From Escherichia phage vB_EcoM_PHB13, in sequence record MK573636: a stretch of DNA of 64,000 nucleotides. One strand, written 5' to 3'. The notes beneath the pieces are model-generated. The model made no database searches. It was not told the DNA's origin and saw only the letters and a program-made list of their open reading frames with translations. Positions 4,936-16,245 of the stretch are shown in pieces. Position 1 is the stretch's first letter, and each line of letters opens with the position of its first letter. A program made the translations under genes and the position numbers.

Positions 4936-4949
4936 GTGAGGATTATATT

Positions 4950-7058
4950 ATGAAAATGCATATTGATAATGAAGAAGTATTTGGCAGTGACTTGAGCGGT
5001 GCGGTTGATTTTTCACTGAAAGCAAGTAGCAAGGCTTTTATGGTGCTTTCTAAGAACACTTATCAATATTGTGAGCGTGCTTGCGTCCGTGAGTATTCGT
5101 GCAATGCTACCGACACTCACAAAGAAGCCGGAACCTTAGATCGTCCGTTTGATATTCATTTACCGACTGCAATCGAACCGTATTTTTCTGTGCGTGATTA
5201 TGGTACTGGTATTCCGTCTAAGAAAGAATTAGAACAACTGTTTACGGTTTACTTTGAATCAACAAAAGACCAGACTAATGACTATATCGGGTCTTTTGGT
5301 TTGGGTGCGAAGTCTGCTTATAGCTATACCGACACCTTTACAATCGTAAACTATTACAATGGTCGCGCTTATGGCTTTACGGCATTTGTGCAAAACTCTA
5401 TGCCGAAAATGGTGCAGATTTTCGACGAACCGACCTATGAAGACAATGGTCTGAAAATCACTATTCCGGTGAAAGAAAAAGATATTAAAACATGGCATCG
5501 AGAAGCACAATTTGTACTGCGTCATTTTGGGGAACATAAACCGAATATCAACGCAATCGAAATTAACTATTTCCCTAGCTTTGATAATTATTATGTGTGT
5601 AATGGGCGTGATAACGATTCCTACGTGGTATATGCAATCATGGGTAAGATCCAGTATCCAATCCCGTATGAATATATTCGCGGAACATGGTTAGAAGCTG
5701 TAAACCGCCAGCACCAGACCATTTACATTAATTTTGAGTTGGGTGATCTGGACCTGATGCCATCGCGTGAAGAAGTTCACTTGTCAATTGAGACTAAAGC
5801 GAACATCGAAAAACGTATTGCAGAAATCAATGAAATGATGTTGGAAAAGGTTAAAGAAAAGATCGCCAGCATTGAAACAGAGCGTAAACTTGCTCAATTT
5901 ATGAGCGAGTATTCATCGACTCAACGCAATATTATTGGCAAGATGGGTAAGATCGGACAATGGGATGATCCGGTAGCAATCTATAATAAGTTTGTGAATG
6001 CTGGCAAAGATTCACCCAATGACGTAGAAGGACAGGTGTATACTCTGTATCATACTCGTCACACAATCAGTAAATTGCGCCCTGCTTTCGTTAGCAGTCA
6101 ATACAACATTACGCATTTTGTATGGATGCATAAAGAAGATATTACGTGTCTTATTGATGATACCGATAAACCGAAACTGCGTGCACTGACTCTTAACGGC
6201 ATGGTCCAGGAATACGGCATCAATAAAAAGGTGCTGGTGTTCCGTCAGAACAACGAAAAACATATGGAGACTTTCGAGTACATCAAACAGTATTATGATG
6301 ATTCTGAAATGACCGTGATTAAGGTATCAGAGGCCGATGATCTTCGTGCTAAAGCAATTAAGCCGGAGAAGACCGAGCGTACACAACGTGAATCAACTCC
6401 TAAGCTGCCTAACGTGTATATCATGGAAAAGATTGGTGACAGTTGGCATAAAACCAGCCATCATATGAAAGCGGCAGAGATTCGCGAGTTATCAGGCTTG
6501 CACATGTTCCGCGTGGGTGATGCATTCGAAAGCCGTAGCCGTCAATCGATCTATAATGAAAATACATTACACACGGCGCTTGACTACTTCGGGGTAACAA
6601 AGTATATTATTACCCGTAACGAGACACAAAAATATCTCGTTGACGAACAATTGGAATGTGCGCTAGAATTTGTTCGCGGTAAGCTGGCTGGTCTGGCTAA
6701 GAAGGTTAAGACCAATCATCTGGGGTATGGCGAATATCTGGGTGTGATCACTATGTTGTTTCATGACGATGAACTAGAACGCTGTGTTCCAGAATTTATT
6801 GACAGACTGTACGGTCGTCATTATAATAAAGAGGTTTCCAAGTTACTCCTTCGTACTCGTTGGATTATGGACGAAGAAACTAAAAAGATCTGTGATGAAA
6901 AATTCACGGCAGCAAACGAACGAATTAAAGCAGTTTGTGCGAAGTTTAAAGAGAATAGCCCGTTACTGTATGATATTGTAGATAACTGGTATCGTATTCT
7001 GCATAACGACAAACGCGCACAAGACTTTATGAAACTGGTTAAGAATGTTAAATTTTAA
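4950..7058 (+). CDS. rIIA: rIIA protein (702 aa)
   Basis: Size and HATPase-like N-terminal region (DYGTGIP...GSFGLGAKSAY) match T4 rIIA; it sits between the topoisomerase gene and rIIB as in T4. Confidence 0.85.
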   Translation: MKMHIDNEEVFGSDLSGAVDFSLKASSKAFMVLSKNTYQYCERACVREYSCNATDTHKEAGTLDRPFDIHLPTAIEPYFSVRDYGTGIPSKKELEQLFTVYFESTKDQTNDYIGSFGLGAKSAYSYTDTFTIVNYYNGRAYGFTAFVQNSMPKMVQIFDEPTYEDNGLKITIPVKEKDIKTWHREAQFVLRHFGEHKPNINAIEINYFPSFDNYYVCNGRDNDSYVVYAIMGKIQYPIPYEYIRGTWLEAVNRQHQTIYINFELGDLDLMPSREEVHLSIETKANIEKRIAEINEMMLEKVKEKIASIETERKLAQFMSEYSSTQRNIIGKMGKIGQWDDPVAIYNKFVNAGKDSPNDVEGQVYTLYHTRHTISKLRPAFVSSQYNITHFVWMHKEDITCLIDDTDKPKLRALTLNGMVQEYGINKKVLVFRQNNEKHMETFEYIKQYYDDSEMTVIKVSEADDLRAKAIKPEKTERTQRESTPKLPNVYIMEKIGDSWHKTSHHMKAAEIRELSGLHMFRVGDAFESRSRQSIYNENTLHTALDYFGVTKYIITRNETQKYLVDEQLECALEFVRGKLAGLAKKVKTNHLGYGEYLGVITMLFHDDELERCVPEFIDRLYGRHYNKEVSKLLLRTRWIMDEETKKICDEKFTAANERIKAVCAKFKENSPLLYDIVDNWYRILHNDKRAQDFMKLVKNVKF

Positions 7059-8938: not shown

Positions 8939-9301
8939 ATGCTAGGTCATTCTAAAATAGAAGATTGCTCATTCAGAGCAATGAAAGATGATTTTTCGGT
9001 CCTGTACGCGTCTATCCGAGAGTTGTTTGTAGATTTTAAGCAATTCAGAGAATACAAAGGCGTTAAGATGCGGGAGTGGGTATTCTGGCCTTTCTATATC
9101 ATTACTCTGTTTTCTATGGTATTTTGTTTTGTCGGGATCACTATCGCTAGTTTTGTCACTTGCGTTTTCCTGATTATCAGGTGTATCATGTTTGCTTTGA
9201 TTGCTGCCCCGTTTATTGTTTCAATCCTTCCGTTAAAATGGCTATTGGATTGGGCTGATAAATCTGATAAAGTAAAGAATGTGATTTGTAAGCGTGTATG
9301 A
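8939..9301 (+). CDS. small membrane protein (120 aa)
   Basis: Long hydrophobic stretch (WVFWPFYIITLFSMVFCFVGITIASFVTCVFLII...) predicting 2-3 TM helices. Confidence 0.5.
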   Translation: MLGHSKIEDCSFRAMKDDFSVLYASIRELFVDFKQFREYKGVKMREWVFWPFYIITLFSMVFCFVGITIASFVTCVFLIIRCIMFALIAAPFIVSILPLKWLLDWADKSDKVKNVICKRV

Positions 9302-10673
9302 GGTGAAGATGGATAAAATTAGTCAAATTGTAAACACATTTACTTACCGCAGCCTTGAAAGCATTGTACATAATGAAGCTAAGGAATATGCGATCTATTC
9401 TGCCGAGGAACGCGGGATTCCTCAATTAGTGGATGGGCTTAAACCAGTGCAACGCTTTGTTATGGAGTGCGCACTTCAAAAGAGTAAAGGCGACCGTAAG
9501 AAATTCCGTAAGATGGCAGATATTGGATCTGGTGTTGCTGAGTTGGGTTATCACCACGGGGAAACTAATGCCGTAGAAGCCGGATCACTCATGGCGAATA
9601 CATGGAGCAATAATACTCCACTGCTTGACGGTCAAGGTAACTTCGGATCGCGTTTAGTCCAGAAAGCAGGTGCGGCACGTTATATCTTTGCTCGTGTGCA
9701 TGAAAACTTCTTTAAAATCTATAAAGATATGAATTGCGCACCTAAGCACGAAGATCTGGAACACATCCCGCCAGCATTCTACTTGCCAGTTGTGCCAATG
9801 GTATTGGCTAATGGTATTAGTGGTATTGCTACAGGGTATAAAACTGACATTTTACCGCATTCACTGGAAAGCCTTATTGAATGCACAGAGCTAGCACTTG
9901 CCGGAAAACTGGATAAAGAACCTAGTGTTCAATTCCCAAAATTCACGGGTAAAGTTATCCCGCGAGATGATCGCGATGGTGTGATTCTTGAGGGTACATA
10001 TGAACTAAACGGCAAGACTAAACTGACAATATCAGAAGTTCCTTATAAGTTCGACCGTGAAGAATATGTGGCGGTACTGGATGCGCTGGAAGAAAAAGAT
10101 CTGATTGTATCGTATAATGACCGTTGCTCTAAGGACGGATTCAGATTTGAAGTAACACTGAAACGCGATTATTTCAAAAGCGAAGATGAATCCGCTCGAC
10201 ATGAGCAAATCATGAAGGATTTTAAACTAACGCAGTTAGTAGCCCAGAATATCGTGGTAGTTAATGAACGTGGCTTAGTTGAAGTATTCGAGAAAGCGAG
10301 CGATCTGATCCGTCGATTCGTCGAAATCCGATTAGGGTATGTCGATAAACGCATTGAATTGATGCAAGCGGAAACGCTGGAAGCATACAATTATGCAATG
10401 GCTAAAGCCAAATTTATCGACCTTGTAATTAAGGGCGAAATCGAGCTACAGGGAAAGAAAAAGGCCGAGGTAATGCAATCCATCAATGGACATGAAAAAC
10501 TGCGTCCATACGCCGATAAGCTAGTTTCTATGCCATTGTATAGCGTTACTCAAGAAGAGTATGATCGACTGGTCAAAGATGCCGAGAAACATCATAGTGA
10601 ATATGAGTATTGGACAAAGACGACCGCAATGAAGGAATATAAGAAAGATCTTAAAGAACTTAAGAAGGGTTGA
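9294..10673 (+). CDS. 52: DNA topoisomerase II medium subunit (GyrA-like)
   Basis: GLKPVQRF...DIGSGVAELGYHHGE...LLDGQGNFGSR...RYIFARV matches T4 gp52; alternative start ATG 9309. Confidence 0.9.
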   Translation: MYEVKMDKISQIVNTFTYRSLESIVHNEAKEYAIYSAEERGIPQLVDGLKPVQRFVMECALQKSKGDRKKFRKMADIGSGVAELGYHHGETNAVEAGSLMANTWSNNTPLLDGQGNFGSRLVQKAGAARYIFARVHENFFKIYKDMNCAPKHEDLEHIPPAFYLPVVPMVLANGISGIATGYKTDILPHSLESLIECTELALAGKLDKEPSVQFPKFTGKVIPRDDRDGVILEGTYELNGKTKLTISEVPYKFDREEYVAVLDALEEKDLIVSYNDRCSKDGFRFEVTLKRDYFKSEDESARHEQIMKDFKLTQLVAQNIVVVNERGLVEVFEKASDLIRRFVEIRLGYVDKRIELMQAETLEAYNYAMAKAKFIDLVIKGEIELQGKKKAEVMQSINGHEKLRPYADKLVSMPLYSVTQEEYDRLVKDAEKHHSEYEYWTKTTAMKEYKKDLKELKKG

Positions 10674-12508: not shown

Positions 12509-13309
12509 ATGAAAAACATTATCGCTGCGATCGTTCTTTCTACTACGGCTTTCGGTGCTAATGCTGCGTCCTTTGATTGCGCTAAAGCTACTACCAAACC
12601 AGAGAAGTTTATTTGTGCTAATGAGTCAATCTCCGCACTGGATTCTAAACTTAATGAAGTATATGTTAAGGCTGTTAAGATTGATCCATCTCTTAAACAA
12701 GAGCAACGCAACTGGAATAAAACTGTTCGTGATACAATGATCAACATCGGGCAAATACAGCCACTGGAGGCTGTATATAACGCTCAAATCCAAAACTTGA
12801 TGAACGTATTACCTAAAGAAGAAACAGCGTCAGAAAGCGATTCAGAGACTTCTGCGAAGGTTGAAGAAGAACAACCGAAACAAGAAGAAAAAGTGGTAGA
12901 GCAACCGAAGAAAGAAGAGAAAATCTATGGATCTATCACTTACCAGTGCATTGCAAAATTTACATGGAAAATCATTGATGGTATTGAGACAGACAGCCGC
13001 AAAGATCCATTGTATGGAAACTCTACTTATGGCAACAAGGGCGGAAAGCTGAAAATGACCATGACCGAAGGTGAATTGTCTTCTTTCGTATATGTTGATG
13101 AGCGCGAAGTGTTTAAATCAAATCTGACACGCAGCAAACAATATAAAAATATGGTTGTTGGTATGAGCAAACCGGATGTAGCAGGATACTTCAACGAGTA
13201 CAAAATGTGGGTAGGGGAAAACGATGAAATCCGCTTTGAAGTCATCGAGAAAGGTCGCATTAGCTATGATTATGGTACTCAATATGTTTGCGAATATAAG
13301 AAGGGTTAA
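12509..13309 (+). CDS. secreted protein with DUF1311 (LprI-like) N-terminal domain
   Basis: Signal peptide MKNIIAAIVLSTTAFGANA; then C..A...E.FIC...S...LD..LN..Y......QRNW...VRD pattern typical of DUF1311. Confidence 0.5.
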   Translation: MKNIIAAIVLSTTAFGANAASFDCAKATTKPEKFICANESISALDSKLNEVYVKAVKIDPSLKQEQRNWNKTVRDTMINIGQIQPLEAVYNAQIQNLMNVLPKEETASESDSETSAKVEEEQPKQEEKVVEQPKKEEKIYGSITYQCIAKFTWKIIDGIETDSRKDPLYGNSTYGNKGGKLKMTMTEGELSSFVYVDEREVFKSNLTRSKQYKNMVVGMSKPDVAGYFNEYKMWVGENDEIRFEVIEKGRISYDYGTQYVCEYKKG

Positions 13310-13591
13310 ATGATGAAATTTAACAACATGAAGTTTAAAAAAGATTGGTGGGATGCTATGAGAGCTAACGACCGGATCGGAATTGGAAAGGCAGAAAAGA
13401 CAGTTGTTATTGTCAAGTATAAAGCGACGCAAGATCTTTTGATTAAGGAACTCATTCGAGCGGGTAACTATCAAACACCGGAAGGTCTTATTGACATGAT
13501 GGTTGATAACATGTATAGTGACGAACCACCAAACATTAAACAATATTACAAGCAGTATTACCGAAAGTGGCAGAATTACAACCGAAAATAA
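13310..13591 (+). CDS. hypothetical protein (93 aa)
   Basis: ORF with TAAATG stop-start overlap with the previous gene. Confidence 0.5.
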   Translation: MMKFNNMKFKKDWWDAMRANDRIGIGKAEKTVVIVKYKATQDLLIKELIRAGNYQTPEGLIDMMVDNMYSDEPPNIKQYYKQYYRKWQNYNRK

Positions 13592-13816: not shown

Positions 13817-14185
13817 ATGGAAATTCAAAACAATTACGAAAAATGTGTTATTATCAATGATTTGCAACGTCAATTGCATCATTACGAAACCGATTATAAA
13901 ACAGCAACCAAAACCGGAAAGTTGAAAGTGTGGGAAGTCTGGTATAACCGAAACTATCTGGGAAGCATCCACAAACTTGATCGCAGTGATGTTTATACAA
14001 TGCATGTGGGCGCGTGTGGCGAATCGGATGTAGCATCTAATTTCATGGAAGCACTTGCATTCTATGTAGAATATCTGGTAGACTATATCGAGTTGGAAGA
14101 GGAAGTGGTAGAATTGCTTCCTCCACCGGAAGAAGCGCCGGAAGCAACGATCCTGAAAGCATTAAAGAAAATCTTTGTTAAGTGA
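13817..14185 (+). CDS. hypothetical protein (122 aa)
   Basis: ORF after GTGAGGATTAAATC-ATG. Confidence 0.5.
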   Translation: MEIQNNYEKCVIINDLQRQLHHYETDYKTATKTGKLKVWEVWYNRNYLGSIHKLDRSDVYTMHVGACGESDVASNFMEALAFYVEYLVDYIELEEEVVELLPPPEEAPEATILKALKKIFVK

Positions 14186-14526: not shown

Positions 14527-14538
14527 GGAGATTATACA

Positions 14539-14871
14539 ATGTTTAACTATGACAAATATGAATCATGGAAAGCGACCGAACTGAAAGAGGCAGCGCGGTT
14601 AATCACACCGCGTCTTTATCCGGTGTTGTTTAGCGCCGATAAAGTAACAAGGGAAGTAAACGAGGCGCTATCGGTTTTAGGCTATCTGATCGATAAAGTA
14701 GAGAAGACATCGGTATTCACAAATAGCGTAGAATATACCAGATATCGAGTGTTTTTAGATTCCTTGCTCGTTGTCATTAAAGCACTAAATGATCATAACT
14801 ACACCATGAACATGACGAAAATAATCGACGAAGCAAGAATTATGACAGAGAATATTTTCGGTAAATTTTGA
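14539..14871 (+). CDS. hypothetical protein (110 aa), paralogue of 14986-15309
   Basis: C-terminus ...IIDEARIMTENIFGKF resembles ...IVKDARKLAENVYGKF of the next gene. Confidence 0.5.
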   Translation: MFNYDKYESWKATELKEAARLITPRLYPVLFSADKVTREVNEALSVLGYLIDKVEKTSVFTNSVEYTRYRVFLDSLLVVIKALNDHNYTMNMTKIIDEARIMTENIFGKF

Positions 14872-14985
14872 TTATGAAAGATGATGAATCATTGAAAATT
14901 GCACTGGTTATGCTATTACAAGGTATAGAATTAGCAAACCACGAAAAAATGTTGAAACAACAGCGTGAAATTATGAGAGGTGATT

Positions 14986-15309
14986 ATGATCGAGTTTGAA
15001 ATTGACAACTTTCACGAAAAAGCAGAAGACCTAACCAAAATTTTGATTAGTCGAGGTGCATATAATACGAAAGATATTATAAAAGAAGTTAATGTAGCGA
15101 TGGACGCGATCCGAAAGGAATTTAAACATATTTCAGAGATTGGAGAAAATGGTCATCTTGAAGATGTTGAGCTGGTAGCACTGCGACGCTATTACTTCTT
15201 TGTTGATTGCATCATTGATCTATCTAAAAATTATAGTCATTACATGAAAGATATTGTAAAAGATGCACGTAAGCTGGCAGAGAATGTTTACGGGAAGTTT
15301 CCAGAATGA
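14986..15309 (+). CDS. hypothetical protein (107 aa), paralogue of 14539-14871
   Basis: ATG 14986 after GAGAGG; shared C-terminal motif D.AR...EN..GKF. Confidence 0.5.
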   Translation: MIEFEIDNFHEKAEDLTKILISRGAYNTKDIIKEVNVAMDAIRKEFKHISEIGENGHLEDVELVALRRYYFFVDCIIDLSKNYSHYMKDIVKDARKLAENVYGKFPE

Positions 15310-15554
15310 AATTAGAACAAGCGATTGTATACTTTGAGATGGGCTATGATATTGCTCGTGTAGAGTGGGAAGATGGTGATTTTGTCCGATTGATTAATCT
15401 TCCAGAAACAGCTATTGCACTGGTCAAAGTAGAAAACGGTATACAACGAAATTACGCGTTCTCTGACGAAGACAAACAAGCCGATGACTGGTACGCTACA
15501 TGTTTTCATCATACAGCGTCAAAATGTGATTCAGGGGCTTCTATGCGCCAATAA
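15306..15554 (+). CDS. hypothetical protein (82 aa)
   Basis: ORF overlapping the previous stop (ATGA). Confidence 0.5.
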   Translation: MKLEQAIVYFEMGYDIARVEWEDGDFVRLINLPETAIALVKVENGIQRNYAFSDEDKQADDWYATCFHHTASKCDSGASMRQ

Positions 15555-15557
15555 AAA

Positions 15558-15590
15558 GAAGGGGAGGCCGAAAGGCTTCCCCTTTAAGTT
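15558..15590. terminator. convergent-gene terminator hairpin
   Basis: Stem GAAGGGGAGGCC / GGCTTCCCCTT with GAAA loop between convergent genes; T-run on the - strand side (after holin). Confidence 0.5.
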
Positions 15591-16245
15591 ATCTAATCCT
15601 TCCGAGGATTCTGGCAGATTGATTGCAAAGAGTATCTAAATTCTCAATGTCAATATCCGGTTTATTCTTCCATGAAATGGCGATACTACCAGAATAGACA
15701 TTATCGAGATTGAATATAGGACAAGAATACATGAAACCTATATCGATATTCTCTAATTTCTTTTCTCTTGATGGAATATACTGGAAATCTTTATCGGTAA
15801 AATATGATTTACCTAAAAGATGCCTACGATATTCTTCACTCGTTTTATTGATAGGGAATCCGCCTAAATTTTTTTCATCGATTGTGTGTGGTAGCTTTCC
15901 TTCATATGCCACCAAATCAACAAAATAGTTTAGGTTTTTCGGACGAAAACTAAAAACAGCAGAAAAATCGGCATCAGCCGACACATGAACTATCTGTAAC
16001 TGCTCCTGTGCTGCATTATCAAAATTGCGGTCTTTCTCTACCTGGAGAATGTGAGCATAAGTCTCATAACGAGTCTCTTTATAAAGCGCAAATAACTCGT
16101 TTTTACTATAAACGACAAATGCCAATATGGACAACACGACGGCAGCAAAAACACGAAGTACGAGCAACTCCGTGCTTTTAGTTGTGAAAATAGCGCGCAG
16201 GACATTTGAGATAGCAAAGTCTTTCCCTTTTTCAGAAACTTGCAT
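15589..16245 (-). CDS. t: holin T (218 aa)
   Basis: Matches T4 holin T: ...YKETRYETYAHILQVEK...EQLQIVHVSADADFSAVFSFRPKNLNYFVD...AYEGKLP...MYSCPIFNLDNVYSG...ARILGR; same length. Confidence 0.9.
   Translation of the reverse strand: MQVSEKGKDFAISNVLRAIFTTKSTELLVLRVFAAVVLSILAFVVYSKNELFALYKETRYETYAHILQVEKDRNFDNAAQEQLQIVHVSADADFSAVFSFRPKNLNYFVDLVAYEGKLPHTIDEKNLGGFPINKTSEEYRRHLLGKSYFTDKDFQYIPSREKKLENIDIGFMYSCPIFNLDNVYSGSIAISWKNKPDIDIENLDTLCNQSARILGRIR

Follow-up and report, generated by a model that had tools for sequence, protein, structure and literature searches.

Within a 64,000-nucleotide stretch of DNA from Escherichia phage vB_EcoM_PHB13 (record MK573636), which we refer to as the window, two neighbouring small genes encode proteins with strikingly similar C-termini. 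Based on a sequence-only reading, this similarity had been interpreted as the result of a local duplication. Does it extend over the whole of the two proteins, or is it confined to a short tail, and which role might the two proteins play for the phage?

Genomic Context of the Gene Pair

The window belongs to the Krischvirus group (RB49/Phi1/JSE/GEC-3S type), with 98–99% nucleotide identity over 2.8 kb around the gene pair. The first gene (14539..14871, + strand) encodes 110 aa, is preceded by a strong SD (AAGGAG, 8 nt upstream), and corresponds to ORF257 of Phi1 and RB49. The second gene (14986..15309, + strand) encodes 107 aa and corresponds to ORF256 of the same phages; its start is the ATG at 14986, as annotated in RB49 and Phi1, and an in-frame GTG is found at 14980. 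In the annotation of these relatives, both products are listed as 'hypothetical protein'. The pair is part of the gene string gene 52 ... ORF262-261-260-259-258-257-256.1-256-255, followed by a terminator, the convergent holin gene t, and gp37. Gene 52 (9294-10673) is located ~3.9 kb upstream of the pair, and holin t (15589-16245, − strand) is convergent to ORF255. In T4, the interval between 52 and t comprises motA.1-motA-arn.4...arn-asiA.1-asiA and is syntenic to the Krischvirus block. The genes of the block are tightly packed, i.e., their stops and starts overlap or abut, and most of them have their own SD.

Directly downstream of the pair, ORF255 (15306..15554, + strand; 82 aa) encodes a Tad2-like (DUF2829) protein, which matches PF11195 with an E-value of 3.1e-6 and 28.1 bits at a cut-off of 25. 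The ATG of ORF255 overlaps the stop codon of ORF256 (ATGA) in every Krischvirus variant, and the order 256, Tad2-like gene, terminator, and holin t is invariant across all alleles of ORF256. A sequence search of ORF255 against solved structures, including the solved Tad2, returned no match. We regard ORF255 as a candidate for a Krischvirus sponge of the anti-Thoeris type. In the gap that separates this gene from the convergent holin t, a GC-rich 12-bp hairpin (15558..15585; ΔG −23.6 kcal/mol, z = −4.1) is predicted to close the transcription unit. The annotations of GEC-3S and Makalu list it as a bidirectional terminator, and it was missed by a simple terminator scan.

The nearest strong sigma70-type promoter-like site (TTGACA-17-TATAGT, 11/12; 13491..13519, + strand) lies upstream of ORF260 to ORF255. 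Promoter-like sites are no more frequent in the block than in shuffled sequence, and the late-promoter motif TATAAATA does not occur in the block. The pair had been described as part of an early-gene block downstream of gene 52. The position given in this description is correct, and early expression of the block is suggested by the promoter matches.

Other genes of the block showed features of their own. ORF262 (12509-13309; 266 aa) carries a signal-peptide-like N-terminus and an LprI domain (DUF1311, lysozyme-inhibitor-like; E = 9e-7), and is probably a periplasmic protein encoded in the same early block as the paralogues. In the RB49 record (L007, 5279-5647), ORF259 (window 13817-14185) carries a note on its similarity to a 12.8-kDa protein from the asiA-motA region of T4. 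BLASTP of ORF259 against the T4 reference proteins of the asiA-motA interval revealed no similarity, the best E-value being 0.25 (to Arn).

The Shared C-Terminal Motif

ORF257 ends with IIDEARIMTENIFGKF (14821..14868, + strand) and ORF256 with IVKDARKLAENVYGKFPE, each followed by the stop codon. The motif in ORF256 reads IVKDARKLAENVYGKF (15253..15300, + strand). Both C-termini are exactly as given in the sequence-only reading, and a comparison of the 16-mers revealed 8 identical and 6 conservative positions. The motif D.AR...EN..GKF that had been derived from them holds as a shared motif, but not in the register of its 'D.AR' part, as the Asp residues are one column apart. The corrected motif is [DE]AR-x-[LM]-[TA]-EN-[IV]-[FY]-GKF. 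BLASTP of ORF257 against ORF256 resulted in an E-value of 1e-7 with 37% identity over the last 43 residues, and the local-alignment score reached z = 9.2 against 5000 shuffles, none of which scored as well (0/5000). The C-terminal similarity is therefore far above chance. Among 1005 six-frame segments of the window, these two frames were the only ones to match the family profile or motif. A third 'copy' at 69-344 (E = 0.03 among 1005 sequences) was discarded as noise.

Full-Length Paralogy of ORF257 and ORF256

For the proteins without their last 16 residues, the outcome depended on the method. Bare pairwise comparison was borderline, with a non-significant local alignment (z = 0.18) and a global alignment with z = 3.7 (5 of 5000 shuffles as good); at the profile level, similarity outside the last 16 residues was clearly significant (E = 6e-7 to 2e-5). 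The weak local alignment would fit an alternative explanation, according to which the shared C-terminus is a local artefact in two genes that are unrelated elsewhere and never arose by duplication, and goes back to chance, gene conversion, or a shared recombination junction. Also in favour of this explanation, the last ~50 nt of the ORF256 alleles belong to the conserved flank: dS is 0.2 in this part and >1.2 in the body of the gene, which places a recombination boundary within the ORF256 motif.

The profile comparisons argue strongly against such an artefact. Residues 7-110 of ORF257 match positions 1-105 of the 107 positions of the phrog_9457 profile (E = 2.7e-43), and residues 1-107 of ORF256 match positions 1-107 of 107 (E = 3.7e-56). 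An hhalign comparison of the ORF257 clade with the ORF256 clade yielded a probability of 93.5% and an E-value of 2.2e-7 over 89 columns. For a motif-deleted test, the C-terminal 15-20 residues were cut from every sequence, and the ORFs of the window served as background. The motif-deleted profile of the ORF256 alleles found all ORF257 proteins over their full length (E = 6e-7 to 2e-5), while the best decoy among the window ORFs reached an E-value of 1.2. hhalign of the two motif-deleted clades gave 95.2% and an E-value of 2.7e-8 over 82 columns. In the orthologue alignment, 16 columns are invariant in both clades and spread over the whole length, including (in ORF257 numbering) A19, EVN-x-A at 39-43, I51, K53, Y69, F72, D74, Y88, M92, A99, N105, and G108. 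The N-termini are bridged by ORF256 variants starting with MFNIDD or MFNINC (kvi/AV108, L006), which resemble the MFNYDK of ORF257.

Furthermore, both proteins have PHROG, length, and four-helix layout in common. The motif codons of ORF257 and ORF256 are only 65% identical (dS = 0.8), which rules out a recent gene conversion, and a distant relative from a metagenome (contig L005, see below) keeps the motif at the protein level despite saturated synonymous change. At the level of sequence profiles, the hhalign and motif-removed tests already refute the artefact explanation, and we give it next to no chance. ORF257 and ORF256 are paralogues over their full length that arose by an ancient duplication: the relationship covers ~85–90 aligned columns and reaches beyond the shared tail according to PHROG, hhalign, and motif-deleted profiles, which bears out the proposed local duplication.

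Predicted Fold and Protein Properties

The AF2 model of ORF256, which was based on a 19-sequence alignment, is a confident four-helix bundle (pLDDT 85.7, pTM 0.80) with helices at residues 9-22, 28-54, 59-82, and 87-102. The model of ORF257 is of low confidence (pLDDT 60.6) and places helices at residues 4-26, 33-56, 64-86, and 92-107; the two paralogues are thus predicted to have the same four-helix layout with matching boundaries. Judging from the position of helix 4, the shared motif would comprise the last two turns of this helix and a Gly-Lys-Phe cap. Conserved positions are spread over all four helices, i.e., Ala in H1, (E/D)VN-x-A in H2, RY-xx-F-x-D in H3, and NY...M...AR...EN..G in H4, and the C-terminal motif is the best conserved part of them. 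Foldseek searches of the PDB with both models returned nothing below an E-value of 0.6, the top matches being generic or de novo designed helical bundles. In BFVD, the orthologue from phage JEP8 was the only match to the ORF257 model.

Both proteins are soluble and near-neutral (pI 5.0–7.9, net charge 0 to −5, GRAVY −0.1 to −0.6), and their sequences contain no transmembrane segment or signal peptide. We rejected the idea of a DNA mimic, as these pI and charge values are unlike those of Ocr/Arn. The idea of an internal (capsid-targeting) protein was likewise rejected: a MKTYQEFIAE-like leader is absent by inspection, and the locus is the wrong one for internal proteins.

Distribution of the Family

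The family is identical to phrog_9457, which comprises four-helix proteins of ~105–115 residues and has no functional annotation. Word-indexed searches in 5.8 billion clusters returned only Krischvirus-type sequences. When 1.84 billion representatives at 50% identity were scanned exhaustively with HMMER, four true clusters emerged (P0002, P0025, P0030, and P0031), all of them from Krischvirus-like phages. Three further hits were classified as spurious. Two of them were read: P0032 is a repeat protein with ALSALGYDM segments resembling the ALSVLGYLI stretch, and P0033 a surface protein with leucine-rich repeats. The third, P0029, has 2562 aa and 13 matched stretches. Two family loci were found in IMG/VR. 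A metagenome collection contributed five candidates, three of which were read and proved to be Krischvirus-like; L018 is a chance match, i.e., a bacterial TonB/TPR-like protein with a fortuitous EARKIAENIYGK, and L015 was left out.

The source of cluster P0030 is L005 (ENA ERZ27254724 k141_1959), a 1.5-kb contig. As its holin has only 78% nucleotide identity to Krischvirus, the contig represents an uncultured sister lineage of this genus. On L005, P0030 is the sole copy of the family, intermediate in type, and directly precedes a Tad2-like gene and holin t; the stop codon of the family member overlaps the start codon of the Tad2-like gene by one base (TAATG).

Searches of Pfam and NCBIfam with both proteins returned nothing above threshold, only sub-threshold noise (LAMB4, Grx2, and CudC). 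A sequence search of the PDB with the combined profile did not reveal a credible relative, the only match being an Lrp-type regulator at E = 0.4. The profile of the ORF256 clade matched engineered five-helix-bundle constructs of the coronavirus spike HR1 with an E-value of 5e-7. We rejected this match, because it has no support from Foldseek, and attribute it to a heptad or compositional similarity to repeated coiled-coil segments. By these searches, the family appears to be very small and restricted to Krischvirus-like T4-type phages.

Age of the Duplication and Selection

Between the paralogues, dS is ~2, i.e., synonymous sites are saturated, as they are between the ORF256 alleles, and there is no sign of gene conversion between ORF257 and ORF256. 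Together with the low identity of the motif codons, this indicates an ancient rather than a recent duplication. The dN/dS ratios range from 0.06 to 0.26 for ORF257 pairs and from 0.17 to 0.35 for ORF256 pairs, and both copies are therefore real genes under purifying selection. The combination of low dN/dS with saturated dS characterizes genes that are old and selectively maintained, neither fast-evolving nor decaying. In L005, the motif is kept at the protein level despite saturated synonymous change (dN 0.19, dS 3.4), which suggests that the motif is also under direct selection.

Allele and Copy-Number Polymorphism of the Slot

By tblastn, 48 phage records contain ORF257 and 58 contain a gene of the ORF256 type. 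The genes occur in several arrangements. The first comprises ORF257, ORF256.1, and allele A of ORF256, which applies to the window, RB49, Phi1, JSE, and GEC-3S. The second, found in SSG23, combines ORF257, a 36-aa small ORF, and allele C. In the third (kvi, FL38, and AV108), a kvi-type ORF257 (69% aa identity) is directly followed by allele B, and in the fourth (L006), ORF257 is combined with allele D. The fifth is a single copy of allele C without ORF257, which was seen directly in ECD7, Makalu, L013, and L014, and, as suggested by the tblastn lists, is also present in MIZ4/5, Brandy, Skers, and pEJ01. The sixth and last arrangement is the single copy (P0030) of the sister lineage L005. In total, at least five deeply diverged alleles occur in the ORF256 slot; they share 40–53% aa identity with allele A and among themselves, and the flanks on either side are 97–100% identical. 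ORF257 is represented by two allele types or is absent within the genus. The paralogue pair is not fixed in the genus, as several Krischviruses carry one copy only.

Sliding nucleotide identity to kvi amounts to 97–100% on both sides of the pair and drops to 25–88% exactly over 14530-15245. The pair therefore behaves like a cassette that is exchanged by recombination. The boundaries of this cassette lie in conserved coding sequence, i.e., the end of ORF258 on the left and the C-terminal motif of ORF256 on the right (~15245), and the last 17 codons of the ORF256 alleles (dS ~0.2) belong to the conserved side. A second mosaic patch is found at 12884-13590, where ORF262 in its C-terminal half and ORF261 over most of its length have only 25–80% identity to phage kvi; the flanks of this patch are 93–100% identical to kvi.

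The loss of one copy can be traced in L014 (~4945-4990). Here, the first 14 nt of ORF257 (ATGTTTAACTATGA) are fused to the SD and start codon of ORF256 by a deletion of 424 bp (window 14553-14976) across a 5-bp microhomology (TATGA), which leaves a 6-codon mini-ORF. From this vestige it follows that the one-copy state is secondary in this phage and the duplication ancestral. ORF257 seems to be dispensable, considering that it was apparently lost repeatedly.

The 112-bp spacer between the paralogues is bounded by a 9-bp direct repeat (TGATTATGA), with the left copy at 14869..14877 and the right copy at 14981..14989 (both + strand); the latter holds the SD-proximal bases and the ATG of ORF256. 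Located in this spacer is ORF256.1 (14874..14999, + strand; 41 aa; phrog_17009), which was added to the RB49 annotation in 2010 (PMC2839356). Apart from this addition, our search of the literature on ORF256/ORF257 revealed no mention. Among close relatives, substitutions in ORF256.1 are almost all non-synonymous (dN 0.02–0.07, dS 0–0.05), unlike those in ORF257 and ORF256 of the same genomes, where dN is far below dS. Furthermore, the spacer segment is missing in kvi/AV108 and cut to 36 aa in SSG23. ORF256.1 is probably not a conserved protein-coding gene.

Proposed Function and Alternative Explanations

The explanation that we favour, and that in our view has a little better than an even chance of holding as a whole, describes an ancient paralogous four-helix family that occupies an exchangeable cassette and provides the phage with dispensable early binding effectors. 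The ORF256/257 proteins would act stoichiometrically, by binding a host component, a host-defence component, or a small ligand, and not by catalysis. The conserved polar residues on helices 2-4 would form a common binding or structural core, and the variable remainder, together with the variation in copy number, would be a sign of adaptation to diverse hosts among E. coli and Shigella. We consider a binding mechanism most likely, because the proteins are small, helical, phage-restricted, dispensable, and multi-allelic, belong to an early block, and are coupled to a Tad2-like gene. No catalytic or known-domain signal was found in Pfam or NCBIfam. Taken by itself, and in its broad form, stoichiometric binding of a host or host-defence component has a chance that we would put at even or slightly below.

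Among the specific forms of such binding, anti-defence is the most likely one, because ORF256 is invariably coupled to the Tad2-like gene. The proteins might represent an unrecognised helical-bundle class of anti-defence proteins, acting with the Tad2-like protein either by soaking up immune signals as a sponge or by inhibiting a defence protein directly. Each allele would then neutralise another variant of the host, and this would keep the old alleles and the copy-number variation in existence. As a specific claim, we nevertheless regard this as rather unlikely. None of the searches in Pfam, NCBIfam, PHROGs, PDB sequences, and Foldseek revealed a significant characterised anti-defence relative. 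The adjacency to the Tad2-like gene is a weak argument, i.e., guilt by association, and the Pfam match of this gene is just above threshold. Moreover, allele divergence is purifying (omega < 1), not positive, and the arms-race reading therefore draws only on the polymorphism in alleles and presence/absence, a pattern that many genes of the T4-like hyperplastic regions display.

The coupling to ORF255 could also mean that the ORF256/257 proteins are no independent effectors but functional partners of the Tad2-like protein, be it as a subunit, a regulator, or a second sponge. The ATGA overlap in every variant (TAATG in L005), the invariant order from ORF256 to holin t, and the Pfam score of ORF255 above the Tad2-like threshold agree with a partnership. 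However, ORF255 is nearly invariant (92–97% nucleotide identity) while the ORF256 alleles differ by ~50%, so that the two do not co-vary, and stop/start overlaps are usual throughout the genes of this block. In addition, known Tad2 proteins act alone. We therefore consider this alternative unlikely.

A further alternative relates to the position of the pair, which between gene 52 and t matches that of motA-arn-asiA in T4. The ORF256/257 proteins could be transcription-takeover factors, i.e., analogues of AsiA/MotA that bind the host RNA polymerase or sigma70. The lineage is without a recognisable MotA or AsiA: searches of RB49 for a motA orthologue and for a middle-promoter consensus had no success, and RB49 is not among the phages listed with an AsiA orthologue (PMC1524935). 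The proteins are small and all-helical like AsiA, and weak, non-significant Foldseek matches include sigma-factor chains (E ~5). Despite these points, neither BLASTP nor HMM comparisons revealed sequence similarity to any T4 protein of the syntenic motA-to-asiA region, including AsiA, MotA, and the Arn proteins, Pfam AsiA was not matched even at E-values up to 5, and no AsiA structure appeared among the Foldseek PDB matches listed. A core regulator is also not expected to be multi-allelic at 50% identity, or to have one copy deleted in many isolates, which makes a role in transcription takeover very unlikely.

Equally improbable in our view is a role in inter-phage competition instead of anti-host immunity, i.e., superinfection exclusion or protection from the weapon of a co-infecting relative. 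Old alleles that occur side by side in near-identical genomes and presence/absence polymorphism are patterns that also fit the phage–phage conflict loci in hyperplastic regions of T-even phages. Yet neither protein has a transmembrane segment or a signal peptide, in which they differ from Imm and Sp of T4, and a nuclease or homing-endonuclease neighbour is absent from the block. Dispensable early binding effectors remain the explanation that we prefer for the paralogue pair.

Significance and Comparison with Known Systems

Prior to this analysis, the family was listed among the PHROGs without annotation. New are the evidence for full-length paralogy, the fold model, the polymorphism in alleles and copy number, including one deletion that could be documented, and the doubts cast on ORF256.1. 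Two 'hypothetical proteins' of ~50–60 sequenced therapeutic-type coliphages are thereby united in one family with a confident fold model. The locus illustrates routine evolution of an accessory region, comprising an old tandem duplication, allele replacement via conserved flanks, and loss by microhomology deletion. Being compact, naturally polymorphic, and located next to a Tad2-like gene, it is a reasonable candidate for host-range and anti-defence screens in Krischvirus. If the proteins did act against host defence, the alleles that occur in nature could serve directly as a panel for specificity.

Regarding known systems, the closest counterpart is phrog_9457 itself, which both proteins of the window match end to end, and which is therefore not merely similar to the family but the same thing. 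The tandem paralogy and the multi-allelic, copy-number-variable slot are recorded neither for this PHROG nor in the papers on RB49 and Phi1 that were consulted. Small anti-defence binders and sponges (Tad2/DUF2829, Acb2-type) are likewise small, non-enzymatic, and phage-restricted, and ORF256 is coupled to a Tad2-like gene; however, the searches revealed no homology to any of them and no significant Foldseek match to any PDB entry, and the resemblance is one of context only. The T4 genes for AsiA, Arn, Arn.1-4, and MotA occupy the same place between gene 52 and holin t. Their products, which are small and made early, work through binding to proteins of the host, but they have no detectable similarity to the ORF256/257 proteins in sequence or fold.

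The hyperplastic regions of T4-like phages, as described by the shuffling between RB49 and Phi1 (Arbiol et al. 2010, PMC2839356), offer the broadest parallel. Like these regions, the locus is a block of non-core, early-type ORFans that underwent replacement, insertion, and deletion between near-identical genomes. The same study describes promoter-stem-loop (PeSL) cassettes in modular shuffling. Our locus differs from these regions in that its exchange boundaries lie in conserved coding sequence, and in that one of the losses is a simple microhomology deletion. In this comparison, the paralogue pair is an ordinary feature of the hyperplastic/accessory regions of T4-like phages.
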